Below, in pieces: positions 1 to 9,217 of a DNA stretch of 64,000 nt. Position numbers and translations under genes: made by a program. This DNA is from a bacterium (lineage in GTDB: Bacteria > Patescibacteriota > Minisyncoccia > Phycocordibacterales > Zambryskibacteraceae): contig JAUSGI010000005.1 in the NCBI GenBank assembly GCA_030649135.1, positions 5,754 to 69,753 on the forward strand. The letters run 5' to 3'. How positions within the stretch are numbered: position 1 is the first letter of the stretch; every line of letters starts with the position of its first letter. The notes below the pieces were generated by a model, which was not told where the DNA came from, did no database searches, and saw nothing but the letters and a program-made list of their open reading frames with translations.

Positions 1-270
1 ACCTCCTCCGGCATCCTCTCCGGCTTGACCACGAGGATCAGGCTGGGCACCATACCCCTTTCCGGGATAGGAGCCTGCGCCATCACCCACTCGACCTTGG
101 AATCCGACATGCGGTTTTCCACCGCAGCCAGACGCCCAAAGCAAGTGGTGCAGGCGCACCCCAACCACATCACCTCGAACGCGACGAGATTGCTCTCGAC
201 GCGACCGAAGCGAGGGTTGGACCAGCCGTCCACCCGCAGGCGAACGGTTCGGTTGGCCATGATTTCACCT
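1..270 (-). CDS. hypothetical protein, 5'-partial in window (continues past position 1)
   Basis: Open minus-strand frame from ATG at 268-270 to the window edge, preceded by a strong SD (GAAAGGAGGTG). Peptide MANRTVRLRVDGWSNPRFG...MWLGCACTTCFG. Not in the ORF track because it has no stop inside the window. Confidence 0.4.
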
Positions 271-382
271 CCTTTCATGGCGAGTTATTCACCCGGATAC
301 CAACTGATAGCGCCTTCTCGCTAATCAGTCAGAAATCCAAGGCTACATTAACGGCTAGGTCGCCCCAATCTTAAAAGAACAG

Positions 383-453
383 CTGTTTCGCCCTTTTGGG
401 CACATCAGTCGGGATACGCATCCCGAGACAGCAGGGACTAGTTGATAGTCCCT
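383..453 (+). repeat. copy A of a repeated about 70-nt hairpin-rich motif (CTGTTTC...CATCAG-YCGGGATACRCATCCCG-GAKACAG..CAGGG)
   Basis: Aligns at roughly 75-80% identity with 1549-1620. Contains two stem-loops (GGGATACGCATCCC and AGGGACTAgttgaTAGTCCCT). Confidence 0.5.
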
Positions 454-509
454 ATGGCGGTTTCATCCGCCCCTCCTTATCCCCAACCTCCCCTGTGCGG
501 GTGAGGATG

Positions 510-821
510 TTACGGGGTCGAATCACCTTTCCCGGCATACTTACTCCGGTACTCAGCGATGAGCGCGTCCGCCTCCTCAGTCGAGGAGACGACCTGCCGG
601 AGGCTAACCCTCCGGTTGAGCGTGCCGAACCGGCACGCCACGCGCGGATTGGCAGCTTCGCCAATCCGAAGGACGAGCAGGTACCCGTCCTTCGTCTTGC
701 GCAAGGAATGAGACATCTCCTCGTCGCAAAACTGGCGCACGACTACGCCGTCCGCGCTGGGAGCGGAATTGCACCCAGCGAAGAGCACGACCAGACAAAG
801 AACAGCGGCAAACTTGATCAT
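510..821 (-). CDS. small lipoprotein (signal peptide with lipobox LFAGC)
   Basis: N-terminus MIKFAAVLCLVVLFAGCNS is a typical lipoprotein signal. GC-rich. Confidence 0.5.
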   Translation of the reverse strand: MIKFAAVLCLVVLFAGCNSAPSADGVVVRQFCDEEMSHSLRKTKDGYLLVLRIGEAANPRVACRFGTLNRRVSLRQVVSSTEEADALIAEYRSKYAGKGDSTP

Positions 822-857
822 GTCTTATTCTCCTGCGGCCTCGCCGCTTTCGAACAT

Positions 858-890
858 TAAAGAACTTGAGCGAACCATTTCGCTCTTCTG
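858..890. repeat. 33-bp palindrome-containing motif AAAGAACTTGAGCGAAccATTTCGCTCTTCTGAA, copy 1
   Basis: Near-identical second copy at 1236-1268. Each lies 25-40 bp upstream of a minus-strand start codon (821 and 1210). Inner inverted repeat GAGCGAA/TTCGCTC. Confidence 0.55.
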
Positions 891-1042
891 AAAATCCAAT
901 TCCATTAGATTTTCGGAACAGCGGGCGAAGCATTGCACTTCGCCGGGTTTTTTAACGTGGTTCACTCCACGGAGCTGTGGTCTCGCCTCGGGATTATGAT
1001 TTGCCCGAGATCCCCACTCATGTTTGCTCAGGCACCTTCGAC

Positions 1043-1210
1043 TTACTTTCCAAAGCGATACAGCAGCTTTAGGAAGTAAGGAAAGGCCGCGAAGGACTGC
1101 GCACCTTTGAAGGCGAGGTTGCATCGCTTGCATACCATCACAAGCTGCCCGTCATCCGGGTCCTCGACCCCCTCAAGGAGTTTGTCCTTACACTCCGGAC
1201 AGTCCGTCAT
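1043..1210 (-). CDS. small zinc-ribbon protein (55 aa, CxxC...CxxC)
   Basis: ATG at 1208-1210 (minus) preceded by GGAGGTGG SD. Peptide MTDCPECKDKLLEGVEDPDDGQLVMVCKRCNLAFKG... Below the ORF-track size cut-off. Confidence 0.45.
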   Translation of the reverse strand: MTDCPECKDKLLEGVEDPDDGQLVMVCKRCNLAFKGAQSFAAFPYFLKLLYRFGK

Positions 1211-1235
1211 CTCTTACCACCTCCTTCTTCCAAAG

Positions 1236-1268
1236 AACTTGAGCGAATTATTTCGCTCTTCTGAAGAA
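1236..1268. repeat. 33-bp palindrome-containing motif, copy 2
   Basis: AAAGAACTTGAGCGAAttATTTCGCTCTTCTGAA. Same position relative to the downstream start as copy 1. Confidence 0.55.
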
Positions 1269-1548
1269 CCAAATTTCAATTTTTAGTTCCTCGGAAGAGG
1301 GGGCTAGAGAAGTTCTCTCGCCCCGGCGTAGTCTGGAGTCCCGGTTTCCCTATGCCGGGTTATCTCCAGTTAAGGACCCACGCAAGGTCCCGCGCCACAG
1401 TCGAGGCTTCCCTCGAACGTCTGTGACGACTCGCCGCAACAACCATTGCGGCAGCAGGGGCTGAGATCATCAGCCAACCGCCTGCACGGCCGGTGGACTC
1501 TGGCGCGTTTTGGGGTACGCACCGCTCCACCATGGGAAGAACAAAACC

Positions 1549-1620
1549 CTGTTTCATCCTTTCGGAATCATCAGCCCGGATACACATCCGGATACAGGAA
1601 CCAGGGTTTAGCATTCCTGG
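1549..1620 (+). repeat. copy B of the repeated hairpin-rich motif
   Basis: CTGTTTCATCCTTTCGGAATCATCAGCCCGGATACACATCCGGATACAGGAACCAGGG aligns with copy A. Hairpins CCGGATACACATCCGG and CCAGGgtttagcattCCTGG. Confidence 0.5.
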
Positions 1621-2153
1621 TAGCGGCTCTGCTTCCGCGCGGCTCACCACTCTAAGTAGGTGACACTTCTCTGTTTGTTATCGCGGGACAGAGAGCCGCG
1701 TATGCATTTTCTGTTCCCAGGACTGCGATAACACCCCGGCTAACCCTAAGTTAGCAGTACCCGGAGGGAGAAGATTACTTCCTTCTCCTCCAACGATCGG
1801 TCCGTCCTCCAGAAGGGAAAGAAATCGCTCGAAGCGACTCCCTCCTCTCGGATTTCGGACGACCGTCGGGGCTGTAGCCAGCCCGGGCGAGAATCATAGT
1901 GGCTTGCACCACCAGATTCTTCTTACCTTTTTCCACTCACTCACCTCCTTTCAGGGAACCTTGTCAGCGTCCGATTACAATCTTACTCCATGTGATATTT
2001 ATTGTCAACTCATTTTGACACTTTACTACAACTGGTCGTAAAAATATGGCTAAATAAGACCATAGTTTGAAATATGAGTTTAATTTGGTCTGACTAAACT
2101 AGTATTTAAAGGGTTGATATTTTTGACCAATAATGGTGTTTAGTCATTTACGT

Positions 2154-2182
2154 TTGACAAATAAAATTAGGGGGTATATACT
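2154..2182 (+). promoter_or_regulatory. sigma70-like promoter TTGACA-17-TATACT
   Basis: -35 TTGACA at 2154-2159, -10 TATACT at 2177-2182. It drives a short transcript that ends at the 2378-2412 hairpin. Confidence 0.45.
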
Positions 2183-2377
2183 GGTGACAGAAACTCCTCG
2201 AAAGGAGAGTGCATGAACGACTAGGGGATGGGGAAGTCCGGGGCGTAGCGCCCCGGACATGACCCAGAAATGCGGTTAACAGAAAAGGAGATTGGGATGG
2301 CCGACTGATGTCGTACCTAGGGTAGCTTCAAAAACCAGGAGGGGGTTATGCTGTTAGCAATGACCCCACCCACAAAT

Positions 2378-2412
2378 GCCGTGGCGGCTTCACCGCCACG
2401 GCATCTTCATTT
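2378..2412. terminator. intrinsic terminator-like hairpin GCCGTGGCGG-cttca-CCGCCACGGC followed by a T-rich run
   Basis: Perfect 10-bp stem. It sits where the plus-strand leader unit converges with the 3' end of the minus-strand TrmB-like gene. Confidence 0.55.
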
Positions 2413-3147
2413 ATGATCAAAGATGTATTTGATAAGGCTTTTAAGAGTTTCTGCAAACTCCTGACTTTTTACAGATATTCCTGAAAGTCTTTTCCCGAGT
2501 ATGGCTATTTTCACACGATCGCCATAAATCGTTATGTCACTTGTAATCGGATACTTTTCATGATCTATTTTAATTCTTTCTCCAGTGCTATCAGACGGTT
2601 TATCGATAATTTTCGAGGTGTAAATTGATTTCGACCTGATTCCTCTGGAAATCCTTTCCTCTCGCATATTCGTCGTTTCTTTTTCAGTAAATAGATCTTT
2701 TACTAAATCTAGTGGATATACCATATAGACTGGTTCGTCATCGAGTTTTTTTACAAAAGTATCATCGTTGGAACTCAAGACCCCTTCCTTACCATCGAAA
2801 AACTGGACTATAGGTTTTCCTACTCGCTCTCCTTGGAGACCTCTCAATTGGGGGATGATGATATCTAAGCTTTTTTTGTTTTCCTCTAGAAGGTGAATTT
2901 GTCTCTCAACAAAGAAACCGAGTTTCTCCGGTGGTTCGGCTAGGTAATAAGTCTTTTTACCTATATTGGTCTCACTTACAAGACCCTTTTTAGCCAAAGA
3001 GTCGAGAATGACATAAGTTGTTGGTCTTTTAACTTTCGCTTTTTGTGAGATCTCTGATATTTGAGCCTTGTCGAAAGAGAGGAGGGCGACATAGACTGCC
3101 GCTTCCTTATCGCTCAATCCTATATCCCTGAGATATTTCTCGAACAT
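2407..3147 (-). CDS. TrmB-family transcriptional regulator
   Basis: N-terminal winged-HTH pattern MFEKYLRDIGLSDKEAAVYVALLSF...EISQKAKVKRPTTYVILDSLAKKGLV, as in TrmB regulators. Confidence 0.6.
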   Translation of the reverse strand: MFEKYLRDIGLSDKEAAVYVALLSFDKAQISEISQKAKVKRPTTYVILDSLAKKGLVSETNIGKKTYYLAEPPEKLGFFVERQIHLLEENKKSLDIIIPQLRGLQGERVGKPIVQFFDGKEGVLSSNDDTFVKKLDDEPVYMVYPLDLVKDLFTEKETTNMREERISRGIRSKSIYTSKIIDKPSDSTGERIKIDHEKYPITSDITIYGDRVKIAILGKRLSGISVKSQEFAETLKSLIKYIFDHK

Positions 3148-3180
3148 ATATTAAATGATAGCATGACAGAAACTCTGCTG

Positions 3181-4119
3181 TTACTTCCTCCTTGAATGAA
3201 ACCTTTTGTGGGTATCGCGAAGCGCCTTGTCGGTGACGTGGGTATATATTTGAGTTGTCGAAATATTGGCGTGGCCGAGAAGCATTTGGACGCTACGAAG
3301 GTCGGCGCCATTGCTTAAAAGATCAGTAGCAAAGCTGTGACGAATAACGTGAGGTGTCACTTTTTTTGAAATGCCGGCTTTTATCGCATAATGCTTCACA
3401 ATTCTTTCTATCGAGCGGCGAGTGAGAGGAAGGGAGTCTTTGGTTTTAGTGTTTTTCCCTACCTGAACAAAGAGGGCATCATTCATATCCTTGCGAGCTT
3501 TGAGATATTTGGATACGGCGTTTCTCGCTTCATCAGAAACAAAGACTACCCGCACCTTACTGCCTTTACCCCTGATAGAAAACTCCCCGACAGAAAGATC
3601 AGTATCATTATTTAACGAGCAGAGTTCGGATACACGAAGCCCTGTGGAGAAAAGCATTTCAAGGATAGCTTTGTCGCGAAGTTCTTTAATTCCATCGCCT
3701 TTGGGCATCTCAAGTAGGCGAGTGAGTTCGGCAGGGGAGATGAGATCAAGAGAGCGTTCTCCAACTTTAGCCAGTTCAATGCGTTCTGCTGGCAGACTTG
3801 TAATTTCTTGCCGAGCCAGATACTTGAGAAAAGAGCGTAAGGCAATCAGATAATAATTCTGCGTCTTCTTCGACATGGTTTCACCGGTTTGTCGGTTATT
3901 GCCGGTCGACTGGCGGTTAAGCCACATCCTAAATTCTCTCACCACTTCGTCACTAATATCCTTCGGATTTTTTACTTCGGTATGCTTAAGAAAAACGGAA
4001 AGGTAGTGGTCATAGTTCTCAATAGTCTTGAGTGCCCGGCCCTTTTCGATCTCGGTATATTCCAGAAATCCTCTCTTTAATCGCTCTAGTTCACTAACAT
4101 TCCCCATATTGTGCGACAT
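3181..4119 (-). CDS. tyrosine site-specific recombinase (XerC/XerD / phage-integrase family)
   Basis: Catalytic-domain motifs LRVSELCSL, HVIRHSFATDLL and LLGHANISTTQIYTHV (R-H-R-Y signature). Confidence 0.85.
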   Translation of the reverse strand: MSHNMGNVSELERLKRGFLEYTEIEKGRALKTIENYDHYLSVFLKHTEVKNPKDISDEVVREFRMWLNRQSTGNNRQTGETMSKKTQNYYLIALRSFLKYLARQEITSLPAERIELAKVGERSLDLISPAELTRLLEMPKGDGIKELRDKAILEMLFSTGLRVSELCSLNNDTDLSVGEFSIRGKGSKVRVVFVSDEARNAVSKYLKARKDMNDALFVQVGKNTKTKDSLPLTRRSIERIVKHYAIKAGISKKVTPHVIRHSFATDLLSNGADLRSVQMLLGHANISTTQIYTHVTDKALRDTHKRFHSRRK

Positions 4120-4198
4120 TATAACACGGACGCATTTGACTTGATTTTCTGTTCAAATAGTTATAGGTTTCTTAGCAGAATTGAGCACAGACAGGAGA

Positions 4199-4462
4199 AT
4201 GGCCATGCGATCAGTCACGATAACATTCACGGAAGAGCTCCAGGATGTCGAGAGCGGCGTGACTCCGGGTGGAGCGATCTTTCTCCACAGCATGATTATG
4301 GCGATTAACCGCTTCACGAATACGCTTGAGGTTACCGCACCGCATGAGATCAAGGTAACCGCCGAACTCATTGGGCTCAAATACGAGGACGGCGCAGACG
4401 AGGATGCATTCTCGGTCATTGTGCACAGATCCAAGGTCAGCAAGATGACCATCGAGTTTTAG
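4199..4462 (+). CDS. hypothetical small protein
   Basis: AGGAGA SD. ATG at 4199, or more likely the second ATG at 4205. Followed by a strong terminator. Moderately GC-rich. Confidence 0.45.
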   Translation: MAMRSVTITFTEELQDVESGVTPGGAIFLHSMIMAINRFTNTLEVTAPHEIKVTAELIGLKYEDGADEDAFSVIVHRSKVSKMTIEF

Positions 4463-4490
4463 TAACTACCTTTCGAACAGTATCAGGGGT

Positions 4491-4525
4491 AGGGCCGCGA
4501 CGTCGTCGCGGCCCTCTTTTCATTT
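4491..4525 (+). terminator. rho-independent terminator
   Basis: AGGGCCGCGACgtcGTCGCGGCCCT followed by CTTTTCATTT. Confidence 0.7.
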
Positions 4526-4538
4526 ACCTTTTAGTGTG

Positions 4539-4567
4539 TTGCAAAATATGAGTGCATATGCTATACT
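4539..4567 (+). promoter_or_regulatory. candidate promoter TTGCAA-17-TATACT upstream of rpsO
   Basis: The motifs are present, but the -10 ends only about 7 nt before the GTG start. That would make the mRNA leaderless, hence the low confidence. Confidence 0.3.
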
Positions 4568-4573
4568 TGGAAA

Positions 4574-4840
4574 GTGATTTCAAAGACCAGAAAACTTAAG
4601 CTCATCAAGGAAGTAGCCATCCACGAAAAGGATACGGGCTCTCCTGAAGTGCAAATTTCCATACTGACAAAGCGTATCGAGGATTTAGCCAAACATCTCA
4701 AAACGCATGCCAAGGACAATCACTCGCGTCGCGGGCTTCTCGCCATGGTGGCGGGGCGCCAGGCGCATATGAAATATTTGGAAAAGAAAAGTCCGAAACG
4801 CGCCAGAGCTTTAGAAAAGAAACTTGGTCTGAAGAAATAA
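4574..4840 (+). CDS. rpsO: 30S ribosomal protein S15
   Basis: ...DTGSPEVQISILTKRIEDLAKHLKTHAKDNHSRRGLLAMV... matches the conserved S15 core. GTG start. Confidence 0.9.
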   Translation: MISKTRKLKLIKEVAIHEKDTGSPEVQISILTKRIEDLAKHLKTHAKDNHSRRGLLAMVAGRQAHMKYLEKKSPKRARALEKKLGLKK

Positions 4841-4864
4841 GTTTTAATAGATTAGAAAAATTTA

Positions 4865-5407
4865 ATGACAGTAATAAAACATAAAGCCCAGCGGGTCGGC
4901 ATTTTCATAGACACGCAAAACATTTATCACAGCGCCAAAAATATTCACCACGCCAAAGCAAATTTTGGCGCGATAGTGAAGGACGTACTCGATGGACGGG
5001 TGCTCATCCGCGCTTTAGCCTACGTGGTCACTACCGAATCCGGCGAAGAAAACGCCTTCTTCGGCGCGCTAGAAAAAGCGGGTATCGAAATACGTTCGAA
5101 ACCATTGCAAATATTTCTCGGTGGAGCCAAGAAAGCGGACTGGGATGTCGGATTGGCAATTGATGCCGTCACTATGGCACCCAAACTCGACAGCATCATC
5201 CTCTTGTCCGGCGATGGAGACTATGTGCCTTTGGTAGAATACATTCAAAACACCCATGGTTGCCAGGTAGAGGTAGTGGCCTTCGGCAAATCATCTTCGG
5301 CGCGTCTGATTGAAGCGGCCGATGACTTTATCGACCTCGACCAGAATCCTAAAAAATATCTTCTCAACACCAACAACATAAAACTTCGTGAAGGAGGCGT
5401 CAGATAG
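4865..5407 (+). CDS. NYN-domain (LabA-like, PIN-like) protein
   Basis: VGIFIDTQNIYH...DVGLAIDAV...LLSGDGDYVPLVEYIQ...VEVVAFG pattern of the NYN/LabA family. Confidence 0.8.
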   Translation: MTVIKHKAQRVGIFIDTQNIYHSAKNIHHAKANFGAIVKDVLDGRVLIRALAYVVTTESGEENAFFGALEKAGIEIRSKPLQIFLGGAKKADWDVGLAIDAVTMAPKLDSIILLSGDGDYVPLVEYIQNTHGCQVEVVAFGKSSSARLIEAADDFIDLDQNPKKYLLNTNNIKLREGGVR

Positions 5408-8218: not shown

Positions 8219-9162
8219 AACTGATTCTTGGCGCCGCGGATTTCGAAATGGAGATGCGGACCCGTTGACTTGCCGGTACTGCCGACAGCTCCGATAACTT
8301 GACCCTGCGCCACATTCTGTCCGGACAAAACAATATTTTTACTCATGTGGGCATAAAGCGTCTGGGTACCATTCGTATGGCTAATTACTACATAAAGTCC
8401 GTAACCGCCATTGTATCCGCCGGCACGTGACACAATAACCTTACCGCCAGCCGAGGCGAGGATTGGGGTGCCCGTGGGGGCCGCCAAGTCGACACCATTG
8501 TTGCCGTGAAGGCCTTGACTCTTTCTGCCACCCACTATCGGGCGAAGATAAAATCCTGCATAAGTAGGATAACCTTGAGAGGCCTGTGACCTGGAAGTTC
8601 GGGCTAGGGAAGTCTGGGAAACACTAATGACACCGTCAGGGATAATTACAACATCGCCCGCTTTGAGCTTGGCACCACTTGGAAGGTCGTTATATGAAAG
8701 GATATCGCCGAGATCCGCTTTATATTTGGTGGCTATAGACTTGAGAGTATCGCCGCTTTTTACAGTGTGGCGCACCCCGGAGATGGGCAGGATGACAAGT
8801 TCTTGCCCTTCTTTTATCGAACCCCTCTTGATGTCGTTGGCCCAGACAATAGTGTTGGTGGAAACGCCGAACATCTCGGCAATTTCACTTAGGGTATCGC
8901 CTCGGCGCACAACGTACACACTAATCTGACCGGTGCCGGACTTACCAAGGTCTACGAATACTTCACTATCTCCGCCGTTAGATTCCAGAGCGACACTATC
9001 CACGATGGCGACCCGCGCGCGCCCTGTGCCGGTAGGGTTAATATTTAAATATCCTTCCAAAAGATCCATGGTCTGGGAATTACCGGCATCCACCACTTCC
9101 GGCATACGCAAAACTTCCCCCGCCTGGCTACGCGCTAGGGCGAAGATAGGGAAGGTGACCAA
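8215..9162 (-). CDS. LysM-domain M23 peptidoglycan metalloendopeptidase
   Basis: Two LysM motifs (GDTLSEIA..., GDTLKSIA...) and the M23 signature HNGVDLAAPTGTPI...GSTGKSTGPHLHFEIR. Confidence 0.9.
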   Translation of the reverse strand: MVTFPIFALARSQAGEVLRMPEVVDAGNSQTMDLLEGYLNINPTGTGRARVAIVDSVALESNGGDSEVFVDLGKSGTGQISVYVVRRGDTLSEIAEMFGVSTNTIVWANDIKRGSIKEGQELVILPISGVRHTVKSGDTLKSIATKYKADLGDILSYNDLPSGAKLKAGDVVIIPDGVISVSQTSLARTSRSQASQGYPTYAGFYLRPIVGGRKSQGLHGNNGVDLAAPTGTPILASAGGKVIVSRAGGYNGGYGLYVVISHTNGTQTLYAHMSKNIVLSGQNVAQGQVIGAVGSTGKSTGPHLHFEIRGAKNQF

Positions 9163-9217
9163 TGCAAAAAGTATATATTTGGTCGTTATTTTACTAATAG
9201 AATATGGCTAAACTGCT

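Follow-up and report, generated by a model that had tools for sequence, protein, structure and literature searches.

A 64,000-nucleotide stretch of contig JAUSGI010000005.1 (assembly GCA_030649135.1) from a bacterium of the Zambryskibacteraceae (Patescibacteriota), hereafter called the window, carries near its left end a strong promoter that points into the 3' end of a convergent regulator gene. Between the two lie a pair of three-codon open reading frames (mini-ORFs), each with its own Shine-Dalgarno (SD) sequence. What does a unit of this kind make, and what might its product do? We find that the region is an independent small-RNA gene, conserved in bacteria of the candidate phyla radiation (CPR), whose mini-ORFs share an Asp codon. 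As to function, the explanation that we place first is tentative, and we give it somewhat less than an even chance: the RNA may be a translation brake that engages ribosomes and tRNA-Asp in the manner of the CreT and bar RNAs, and that is repressed, together with an adjoining island operon, by the TrmBL2-like protein encoded next to it.

The promoter is of the sigma-70 type and lies on the plus strand where it had first been reported, with TTGACA at 2154-2159, a 17-nt spacer and TATACT at 2177-2182. It matches the consensus at 11 of 12 positions and is the top promoter-like site within positions 1-5000. The predicted transcription start is at ~2189 and the predicted RNA is ~225 nt long (2189-2414, plus strand), ending at an intrinsic terminator (2376-2414). 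The stem-loop of the terminator (2376-2404) was correctly recognized in the preliminary description of this DNA, except that its stem has 12 bp, 9 of them G-C, and not 10 bp; the loop is CUUCA. The tail, CUUCAUUUAU, overlaps the stop and last sense codon of the convergent gene (2407-3147, minus strand), and the terminator is common to both transcription units. When the RNA was folded (2188-2416) its free energy was -96.7 kcal/mol, far beyond that of shuffled sequences (-70.8 +/- 4.5 kcal/mol; z = -5.8). An independent Logan contig (L001) is identical to the window over 1711-3337, so the junction is real and not an assembly artefact. All this supports the initial proposal of a stand-alone, structured and terminated small RNA that is no mRNA for a protein.

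To obtain relatives, the regulator was searched for in species-representative genomes and metagenomes, and contigs were looked up for its database homologues. This yielded 23 distinct loci (numbered with the prefix L) with regulator identities of 47-82% at the protein level, all of them from Patescibacteria (Zambryskibacteria, Minisyncoccia and related groups). A small RNA lies directly downstream of the regulator gene, on the opposite strand, in 23/23, and nhmmer found it at the equivalent position in relatives. The layout is the same at each locus: a TTGACAAA...GGTATATACT promoter leads into one or two mini-ORFs and stable folds, and a terminator at the regulator stop closes the unit. The transcripts of relatives are 200-400 nt long. 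The promoter TTGACAAAT...GGGTATATACT is kept in relatives. In the related loci that were read, a strong terminator abuts or overlaps the regulator stop codon. Their stems are G+C-rich and 12-15 bp long; the U-tract is good in distant members and interrupted in the close group.

The regulator itself is a winged-helix protein of 246 aa that matches the Pfam family TrmB. Its structure model (pLDDT 88.8) has TrmBL2 (5bqt) as the best match in the PDB over the full length (E 1e-12), and Pfam and NCBIfam models cover only the N-terminal winged helix. TrmBL2 is an archaeal winged-helix, coiled-coil DNA-binding protein, and conservation of a TrmBL2-like protein in Patescibacteria is unusual.

The two mini-ORFs are the conserved functional core of the RNA. 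Mini-ORF 1 (ATG AAC GAC TAG, Met-Asn-Asp-stop; 2213-2224, plus strand) follows the SD AGGAG at 2203-2207, and mini-ORF 2 (ATG GCC GAC TGA, Met-Ala-Asp-stop; 2297-2308, plus strand) stands 6 nt downstream of a second AGGAG (2286-2290). Both had been noted at these positions, with the suggestion that such start-stop pairs be sought in other genomes; there we found ORF1 in 23 loci and ORF2 in 22, with start, Asp and stop varying only synonymously and a GGAGG-type SD 4-9 nt upstream of each start. Only one ORF is present in each of two distant loci, L019 and L026 (MGDGL and MVDILLS). ORF1 starts with ATG in 22 loci and TTG in one, and ORF2 with ATG in 14, GTG in seven and TTG in one, so that A, G and T all occur as the first base of the start, but C in no case. 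Codon 2 is essentially free (10 different codons in ORF1, 17 in ORF2). At codon 3 of ORF1, GAC (16 loci) and GAT (7) together give Asp in 23/23. The corresponding figure for ORF2 is 20/22, the remaining two carrying Asp at codon 4; Asp thereby takes the fixed position in ~43/45 mini-ORFs. The stop follows Asp immediately in 19/23 ORF1 and 18/22 ORF2 sequences, ORF1 being exactly three codons long in 19/23 loci, and some members insert 1-6 extra residues between Asp and stop. All three stop codons occur (TAG 16, TAA 4 and TGA 3 in ORF1; TAG 12, TGA 7 and TAA 3 in ORF2), and the stop site is never TGG.

Because the starts are all initiation codons, codon 2 is free, Asp is specified by both of its codons and all three stops are used, this pattern is, as judged from sequence, the signature of a translated frame, that is, of coding-type constraint. 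It is also rare. Scanning both strands of the window (128 kb) for an SD followed by start, X, Asp and stop returned exactly two sites, ORF1 and ORF2, and SD-preceded three-codon ORFs of any kind numbered only 11. Programmed read-through or frameshifting at the stops was rejected, as no conserved extended frame exists: in-frame extensions range from 0 to 77 codons and are unrelated between loci, and the sequence has no slippery heptamer. Ensemble accessibilities of the SD and start sites were too noisy and were not used.

Some further features of codon choice are recorded here as side observations. Of the 45 mini-ORFs, 28 stop at TAG, compared with 12/48 of the window's ordinary genes. Members of the close group use only NAC or NAU (Asn, His or Asp) as the second codon of ORF1, and these residues, with Asp and the Tyr of L008, make up the four codon boxes read by queuosine tRNAs.

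Constraint at the level of the amino acid, with GAC and GAT both in use, might mean that what functions is the fMet-X-Asp tripeptide, perhaps as a signal or as a ligand for the regulator's C-terminal domain, to which no ligand has been assigned. We regard this as the least probable of the explanations considered and give it very little weight: residue 2 is essentially free, some members add 1-6 residues after Asp, CreT-type mini-ORFs act as RNA and not via a peptide, and we know of no precedent for a ribosomally made tripeptide effector.

The mini-ORFs are embedded in RNA structure. In the window the minimum free energy (MFE) fold begins with a hairpin, CUCCU-CGAA-AGGAG (2194-2207), whose 3' arm is SD1. 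Relatives have different 5' hairpins or none, and in L011, L014, L021 and L022 the very 5' end of the RNA is occupied by the SD. ORF1 is followed by a stable hairpin (2228-2267) made of helices P3 (UGGG/CCCA) and P4 (2236-2258). P4, GUCCGGGGCG-UAG-CGCCCCGGAC, is the perfect hairpin seen in the preliminary description, with a 10-bp stem and a 3-nt loop in place of the 9 bp and 2 nt given there. Single-sequence folds of most relatives turn the whole inter-ORF segment into one long hairpin (-30 to -55 kcal/mol), and the outermost of its helices, P2, begins exactly at the ORF1 Asp codon, so that Asp and stop pair with the downstream strand.

Support for P2-P3-P4 comes from covariation. In a model-guided alignment of 16 orthologues, 94% of cells are paired, compared with 33-52% in slid controls, 20/25 pairs are changed on both sides, and 0/500 shuffles reach the observed values. 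This alignment was fitted to the structure and leans towards it; plain MAFFT with RNAalifold recovered only P4. Variants with GAU for Asp are compensated, GAUUAG facing CUAAUC in L018 and L022. The window copy has a weak P2 (GACU/GGUU), or one replaced by pairing of ACUAGG (2219-2224) with CCUAG (2316-2320).

Downstream of ORF2, 11 relatives (L003, L004, L006, L009, L011-L015, L021 and L022) form an H-type pseudoknot that starts 5-8 nt after the stop, as in GGUGG..GCGUCC..CCACC..GGACGC. In a plain MAFFT alignment 93% of its cells are paired, compared with 28-56% when slid, and 7/11 pairs are changed on both sides. The pseudoknot is absent from L002 and from the window copy, in which a small 4-bp hairpin, CGAC-UGAU-GUCG (2302-2313, MFE), covers the ORF2 Asp and stop instead. 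The covariance model does not recover the window copy at E < 1, and the window RNA is a reduced, divergent member of the family. By sequence geometry, a ribosome on either ORF that holds Asp-tRNA in its P site and has the stop codon in its A site would directly face a stable fold, with the SD 11-14 nt behind it. From what is generally known of frameshift and read-through stimulators, we infer that this arrangement would act on the ribosome.

Beyond the shared core, the RNAs vary. The distant L018, L019, L025 and L028 have a different 5' domain, with an outer stem, an inner hairpin (GAAGC..GCUUC), a conserved UUAAAUA bulge and covarying stems. The close group has a CCGG-UGUGUUA-CCGG hairpin at the 5' end or no 5' domain at all.

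The pairing of GAC-UAG in the close group, with its compensated GAU variants, means that part of the Asp and stop conservation could be structural. Taken further, the RNA might be purely structural or protein-binding and remain untranslated, the ORF pattern being a by-product of sequence and structure conservation. We consider this highly improbable. Distant members lose the P2 pairing and keep Met-X-Asp-stop, the pattern thus persisting where local pairing is not conserved, and the Asp-stop of ORF2 lies outside any conserved helix and is equally constrained. Moreover, C never appears as the first base of the start, positions 10-12 are always a stop or are followed by one 1-6 codons later, and the SD is always at translational spacing.

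A brake of the CreT/bar type is ranked first among the explanations because the RNA holds the same parts list as these systems, twice over, with Asp as the specific codon. We infer that the mini-ORFs are translated, that their translation is inhibitory, that tRNA-Asp is the target and that the TrmBL2-like protein is the repressor. Once the RNA is made, its three-codon frames would be efficient sites of initiation. A ribosome with Asp-tRNA in its P site and the stop codon in its A site would be caught between the SD, still engaged, and the hairpin or pseudoknot ahead of it. Round after round of abortive translation would occupy ribosomes and trap the single tRNA-Asp in the form of fMet-X-Asp-tRNA, and translation in the cell would fall. 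The preliminary description had contained neither the invariant Asp codon nor its pairing, with the stop, into the hairpin base of relatives, and the resemblance to CreT and bar was likewise absent from it.

The predicted repression is suggested by the promoters. The promoter of the RNA had been called an orphan; it is instead one member of a conserved pair of divergent twins. The second promoter lies ~100-330 nt upstream of the RNA on the opposite strand (in the window 1980-2020, minus strand, with the -35 box at 2008-2003 and the -10 box at 1985-1980). The two are near-identical, and in each the -35 box is preceded, at a distance of exactly 6 nt, by a TGTCAA-like half-site. Over the divergent -35 box this forms a near-perfect palindrome, TGTCAA-N6-TTGACA, in 20/21 loci (2003-2020 in the window). 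At the RNA promoter every locus has a degenerate form with the same spacing, a TGTCAA-like half-site, N6 and TTGACA; in the window it reads AGTCAT-N6-TTGACA (2142-2159, plus strand), its right half being the -35 box. We propose TGTCAA-N6-TTGACA as a candidate operator for the TrmBL2-like protein, which would probably keep the strong promoter off by binding over the -35 box. As the same operator is found on the divergent promoter, the RNA and the island that this promoter drives would be switched on together, and the two are probably co-regulated. A more specific version, in which the pair forms a two-gene switch that couples the state of translation or of tRNA-Asp to the hypervariable island through a non-CRISPR, protein-repressed, aspartate-specific toxin or brake, is possible but doubtful.

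Several observations weigh against a brake of this type. No CRISPR-like array occurs in the 64-kb window and no creA-like element nearby. Asp codons are common in the window (817/16,465, or 5%) and divide about equally between GAC and GAT. The Arg and Ile CreT toxins work through a rare tRNA, a logic that does not carry over here, and sequestration through a rare codon was rejected. The specific codon is a single Asp, with codon 2 free, whereas CreT RNAs have two consecutive Arg, Ile or Pro codons, and our literature search found no stalling or drop-off rule for X-Asp-stop. The position of the hairpin is immaterial in the CreT of P. aeruginosa (bioRxiv 10.64898/2026.06.02.729485). In the window copy SD1 is sequestered in a hairpin, and P2 and the pseudoknot are degenerate. 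The covarying hairpin and the pseudoknot at constant spacing suggest more than RNA stabilization. Finally, ClpP and RNase Y neighbours are retained within a sub-lineage (L014 and L021-L023), and such constant neighbours are more what one expects of a regulatory locus passed on vertically than of a toxin-antitoxin pair with a patchy distribution.

Some of these features would fit a non-toxic sensor of translation status or of Asp-tRNA. Here occupancy by the ribosome, long when Asp-tRNA is scarce or termination is slow, would open P2-P4 and the pseudoknot and thereby change the binding or stability of the RNA, with a read-out on the island or the regulator. Since the Asp and stop codons of ORF1 make up one side, the 5' one, of a covarying helix, the fold has to rearrange when a ribosome occupies this frame. 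The pseudoknot keeps a constant distance of 5-8 nt from the stop, the locus is vertically conserved beside its regulator, and a single conserved amino-acid codon is the device of amino-acid-sensing leader peptides. A single Asp codon is weak by the standard of known leader peptides, however, the freed 3' strand of P2 is conserved neither in distant members nor in the window, and no output element (antiterminator, downstream sense gene or conserved single-stranded seed) was identified. On balance we think a sensor unlikely, if worth keeping in mind.

Alternatively, the RNA could be a base-pairing or protein-binding small RNA in which the SDs and mini-ORFs only recruit ribosomes, against 5'-end-dependent decay or as a guide to co-transcriptional folding, like STAB-SD elements or the two-codon minigene of axe-txe. 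SD1 and ORF1 lie at the extreme 5' end in several relatives, the 3' half of the RNA is long, structured and lineage-variable, and the axe-txe mini-ORF is a precedent, acting in cis and being proposed to protect its mRNA (PMC8708949). This would leave unexplained why Asp precedes the stop in ~43/45 ORFs and why there are two units, and no conserved target-pairing region was found; we judge it improbable.

The preliminary description had also raised the possibility of a ribosome-sensing attenuator. This reading was not borne out: no antiterminator complementary to a terminator arm was found, and there is no sense gene downstream, since at every locus the RNA runs towards the 3' end of the regulator gene. 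Duplex searches of the upstream RNA against the 5' arm of the terminator gave z values of -1.7 to +0.8 relative to shuffles, calculated for correctly delimited terminators only, about half of the loci. A ribosome-dependent attenuator of the Rli53, erm or cat leader type was rejected accordingly. In a variant of this idea the terminator would be conditional, and stalled ribosomes would cause read-through antisense to the TrmBL2-like gene, silencing the regulator by convergent transcription. Rli53, a terminated RNA of ~207 nt with a translated ORF of three amino acids that overlaps alternative structures, is a precedent (PMC8079631), RNA and regulator gene converge in all 23 loci, and the U-tract of the close group is interrupted. 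The missing complement to the 5' arm, the long G+C-rich stems with the good U-tracts of distant members, and the distance of 70-250 nt, with variable domains, between the ORFs and the terminator make it quite improbable.

Does the RNA belong to a family already known? Scans with Rfam 15, whose models include those for the T-box, tmRNA, 6S, SRP, RNase P and self-cleaving ribozymes, gave no gathering-score match in the window or in eight related loci, within 2154-2416 there was nothing below E = 5, and six further loci had no match at the RNA position with E <= 0.01. ARAGORN found no transfer-messenger RNA and no tRNA match to the RNA. Thus no known family in these scans explains the region. Two outcomes had been named at the outset as refuting the first description, an Rfam match that explains the structure and mini-ORFs that relatives do not conserve, and neither was obtained. 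Likenesses seen by eye to RNase P (GGAAGUCCGG), to the signal recognition particle RNA and to a T-box (AGGUGGU..GCG) were dropped because the segments concerned form local helices and no model matches. We found no description of a twin-minigene RNA in the literature. A phage or plasmid origin of the module was rejected as well: neither the regulator nor two DNA patterns of the module have a relative or match in IMG/VR, and blastn of positions 1-2420 against GenBank phages returned only a 45-nt hammerhead match, with no plasmid match. Among the annotated neighbours in eight loci there were no cas genes.

The third reading frame described at the locus, of 22 aa (2348-2416, plus strand; ATG at 2348, TGA at 2416), exists and runs through the terminator in the window, but it is not conserved: relatives have no third ORF or have unrelated ones of 7-29 aa. 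It was therefore rejected as a functional part. Its start ATG lies within the 5' arm of a penultimate hairpin, GGGGGUUAUGC...GCAAUGACCCC (2341-2367, MFE), which is structurally conserved and homologous to GGGUUGCG...CGCAACCC in L002, L011 and L012. Some relatives do have a third SD-preceded short ORF, such as MTLLFMGCG, or MMLLLPKGCAKT in L011, located ~130 nt after the ORF2 start in L004, L012 and L015 and ~51-64 nt after it in L002 and L011. The ORF is confined to part of the family and shares sequence with the conserved GGGUUGCG hairpin, which it overlaps.

On its left the RNA unit borders a variable island of foreign composition. In the window this island (1-1950, minus strand), driven by the leftward promoter, has 52-63% GC, compared with ~35-45% in the adjacent DNA; islands measure 2-5 kb. 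It consists of small genes of unknown function together with hammerhead ribozymes. The ORFs, all on the minus strand, encode a 53-aa protein containing '..ILARAGYSPDG..' (1936-1775), a 55-aa zinc-ribbon-like protein (1210-1043) and a 103-aa lipoprotein-like protein (821-510), and a further ORF starts at 260 and runs off the window. The island proteins gave no significant match to Pfam, PHROG or PADLOC families. Island content differs between loci, with the ILARAGY protein recurring in L006 and L009 and the 260-start ORF in L023.

A type III hammerhead motif occupies 434-380 (minus strand; Rfam E 3e-7, 42.7 bits, just under the gathering score of 48.5). A second (1598-1548, minus strand), with a CUGAUGA...GAAAC core, is not listed by Rfam; over 45 nt it shares 91% identity with a sequence that many Pseudomonas phages carry in their genomes. 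Relatives carry hammerheads at 9150-9205 and 10764-10819 in L006, at 8309-8363, 9026-9080 and 9918-9972 in L009, and at 5393-5447 in L022. The motifs score 39-44 bits, are spaced 0.7-1.6 kb apart and lie on the transcribed strand of the island, where they might cut the island transcript into pieces. The window island also contains a 41-nt direct repeat, 90% identical between 859-899 and 1232-1272, which includes the hairpin GAGCGAA..UUCGCUC. On the minus strand it lies just upstream of two small island genes and may be a repeated regulatory or processing element.

On the far side of the regulator, the gene directly upstream in the window, and in the window only, encodes a tyrosine recombinase (3181-4119, minus strand; Phage_integrase, E 4e-43). 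In relatives this place is taken by ClpP and RNase Y, by tRNA genes or by others. In three of the loci examined, a gene for an NYN/LabA-like nuclease lies within ~2 kb of the regulator (window 4865-5407, plus strand; L022 1780-2277; L025 2382-2948), and in L022 a second TrmB paralogue stands beside it. The tRNA genes near the module are those for Pro, Gly and Arg; no linked gene for tRNA-Asp was found.

The ribosome-engaging mini-ORF RNAs described so far are bar of phage lambda and the CRISPR-guarded CreT RNAs with Arg, Ile or Pro codons. The RNA described here presents the same design in a new setting: a clade of ultra-small Patescibacteria, an invariant Asp, a tandem duplication and a transcription factor instead of Cascade. 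It stands at the head of an island full of hammerheads and of genes without a Pfam or PHROG match, and would be the regulatory entry point to this uncharacterised, ribozyme-rich region in organisms not yet cultured alone. If our reading is correct, codon-specific RNA brakes on translation extend beyond CRISPR loci, and SD-start-X-Asp-stop followed by a fold is a simple signature with which to search for further members. X-Asp-stop abutting a stable fold would then be a previously unrecognized ribosome-trapping context, which raises the testable question of what is special about peptidyl-tRNA-Asp at a stop codon.

How, then, does the twin-minigene RNA compare with known systems? Among leader RNAs, that of Rli53/lmo0919 is similar in being a terminated transcript of ~200 nt with an SD-bearing three-codon ORF that overlaps secondary structure. 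In contrast to the present RNA, with its convergent gene and no antiterminator found, Rli53 has anti-antiterminator, antiterminator and terminator structures and a downstream resistance gene. The 'start-stop' sites of E. coli and the axe-txe minigene share the principle that minimal SD-bearing ORFs bind ribosomes and act without a protein product; unlike our RNA, they lie inside or before genes, act in cis, have no conserved sense codon and are not free-standing RNAs.

The lambda bar RNA and synthetic toxic minigenes are built from an SD, AUG, one to a few codons and a stop. In lambda, barI and barII are separate minigenes that share the last sense codon, AUA, just as the two units described here share Asp. 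These minigenes cause peptidyl-tRNA drop-off and starvation for one tRNA, most strongly when the ORF is shortest, a likeness that is predicted for the present RNA. Three-codon minigenes give the strongest inhibition and accumulation of peptidyl-tRNA, which is reversed by peptidyl-tRNA hydrolase (Pth) or by tRNA (PMC2490762). In contrast to the RNA studied here, which is chromosomal in CPR bacteria and for which no viral match was found, bar acts only in Pth-deficient hosts, uses a rare codon and has no dedicated terminated RNA with conserved structures.

The CreT RNA of H. hispanica requires a strong SD, an efficient start, two AGA codons and a stable stem-loop, and that of H. hubeiense has two AUA codons (PMC8501985). 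In P. aeruginosa a 15-nt mini-ORF lies between the SD and a GC-rich hairpin, with two Pro codons right before the stop; these are not rare codons, and synonymous ones can take their place (bioRxiv 10.64898/2026.06.02.729485). Like CreT, the present RNA is a small RNA with a strong promoter (repressed in CreT, predicted to be repressed here), a strong SD and an efficient start, and with a mini-ORF of few codons in which the specific codon stands immediately before the stop. It likewise has a stable G+C-rich stem-loop downstream (2228-2267 in the window; covarying P2-P4 and pseudoknot in relatives), and as in the Pro-type CreT the requirement appears to be for the amino acid or tRNA and not for a rare codon. 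It differs in having two tandem units per RNA, in a first hairpin that includes Asp and stop, in a pseudoknot at fixed spacing after the second ORF, and in its Patescibacteria host. In place of a CRISPR-cas locus and a CreA guide, its constant partner is the convergent TrmBL2-like gene. Because it has no CRISPR locus, creA, consecutive pair of specific codons or rare codon, it is not a member of the CreTA systems; in its overall design, the twin-minigene RNA nevertheless most resembles CreT and bar.

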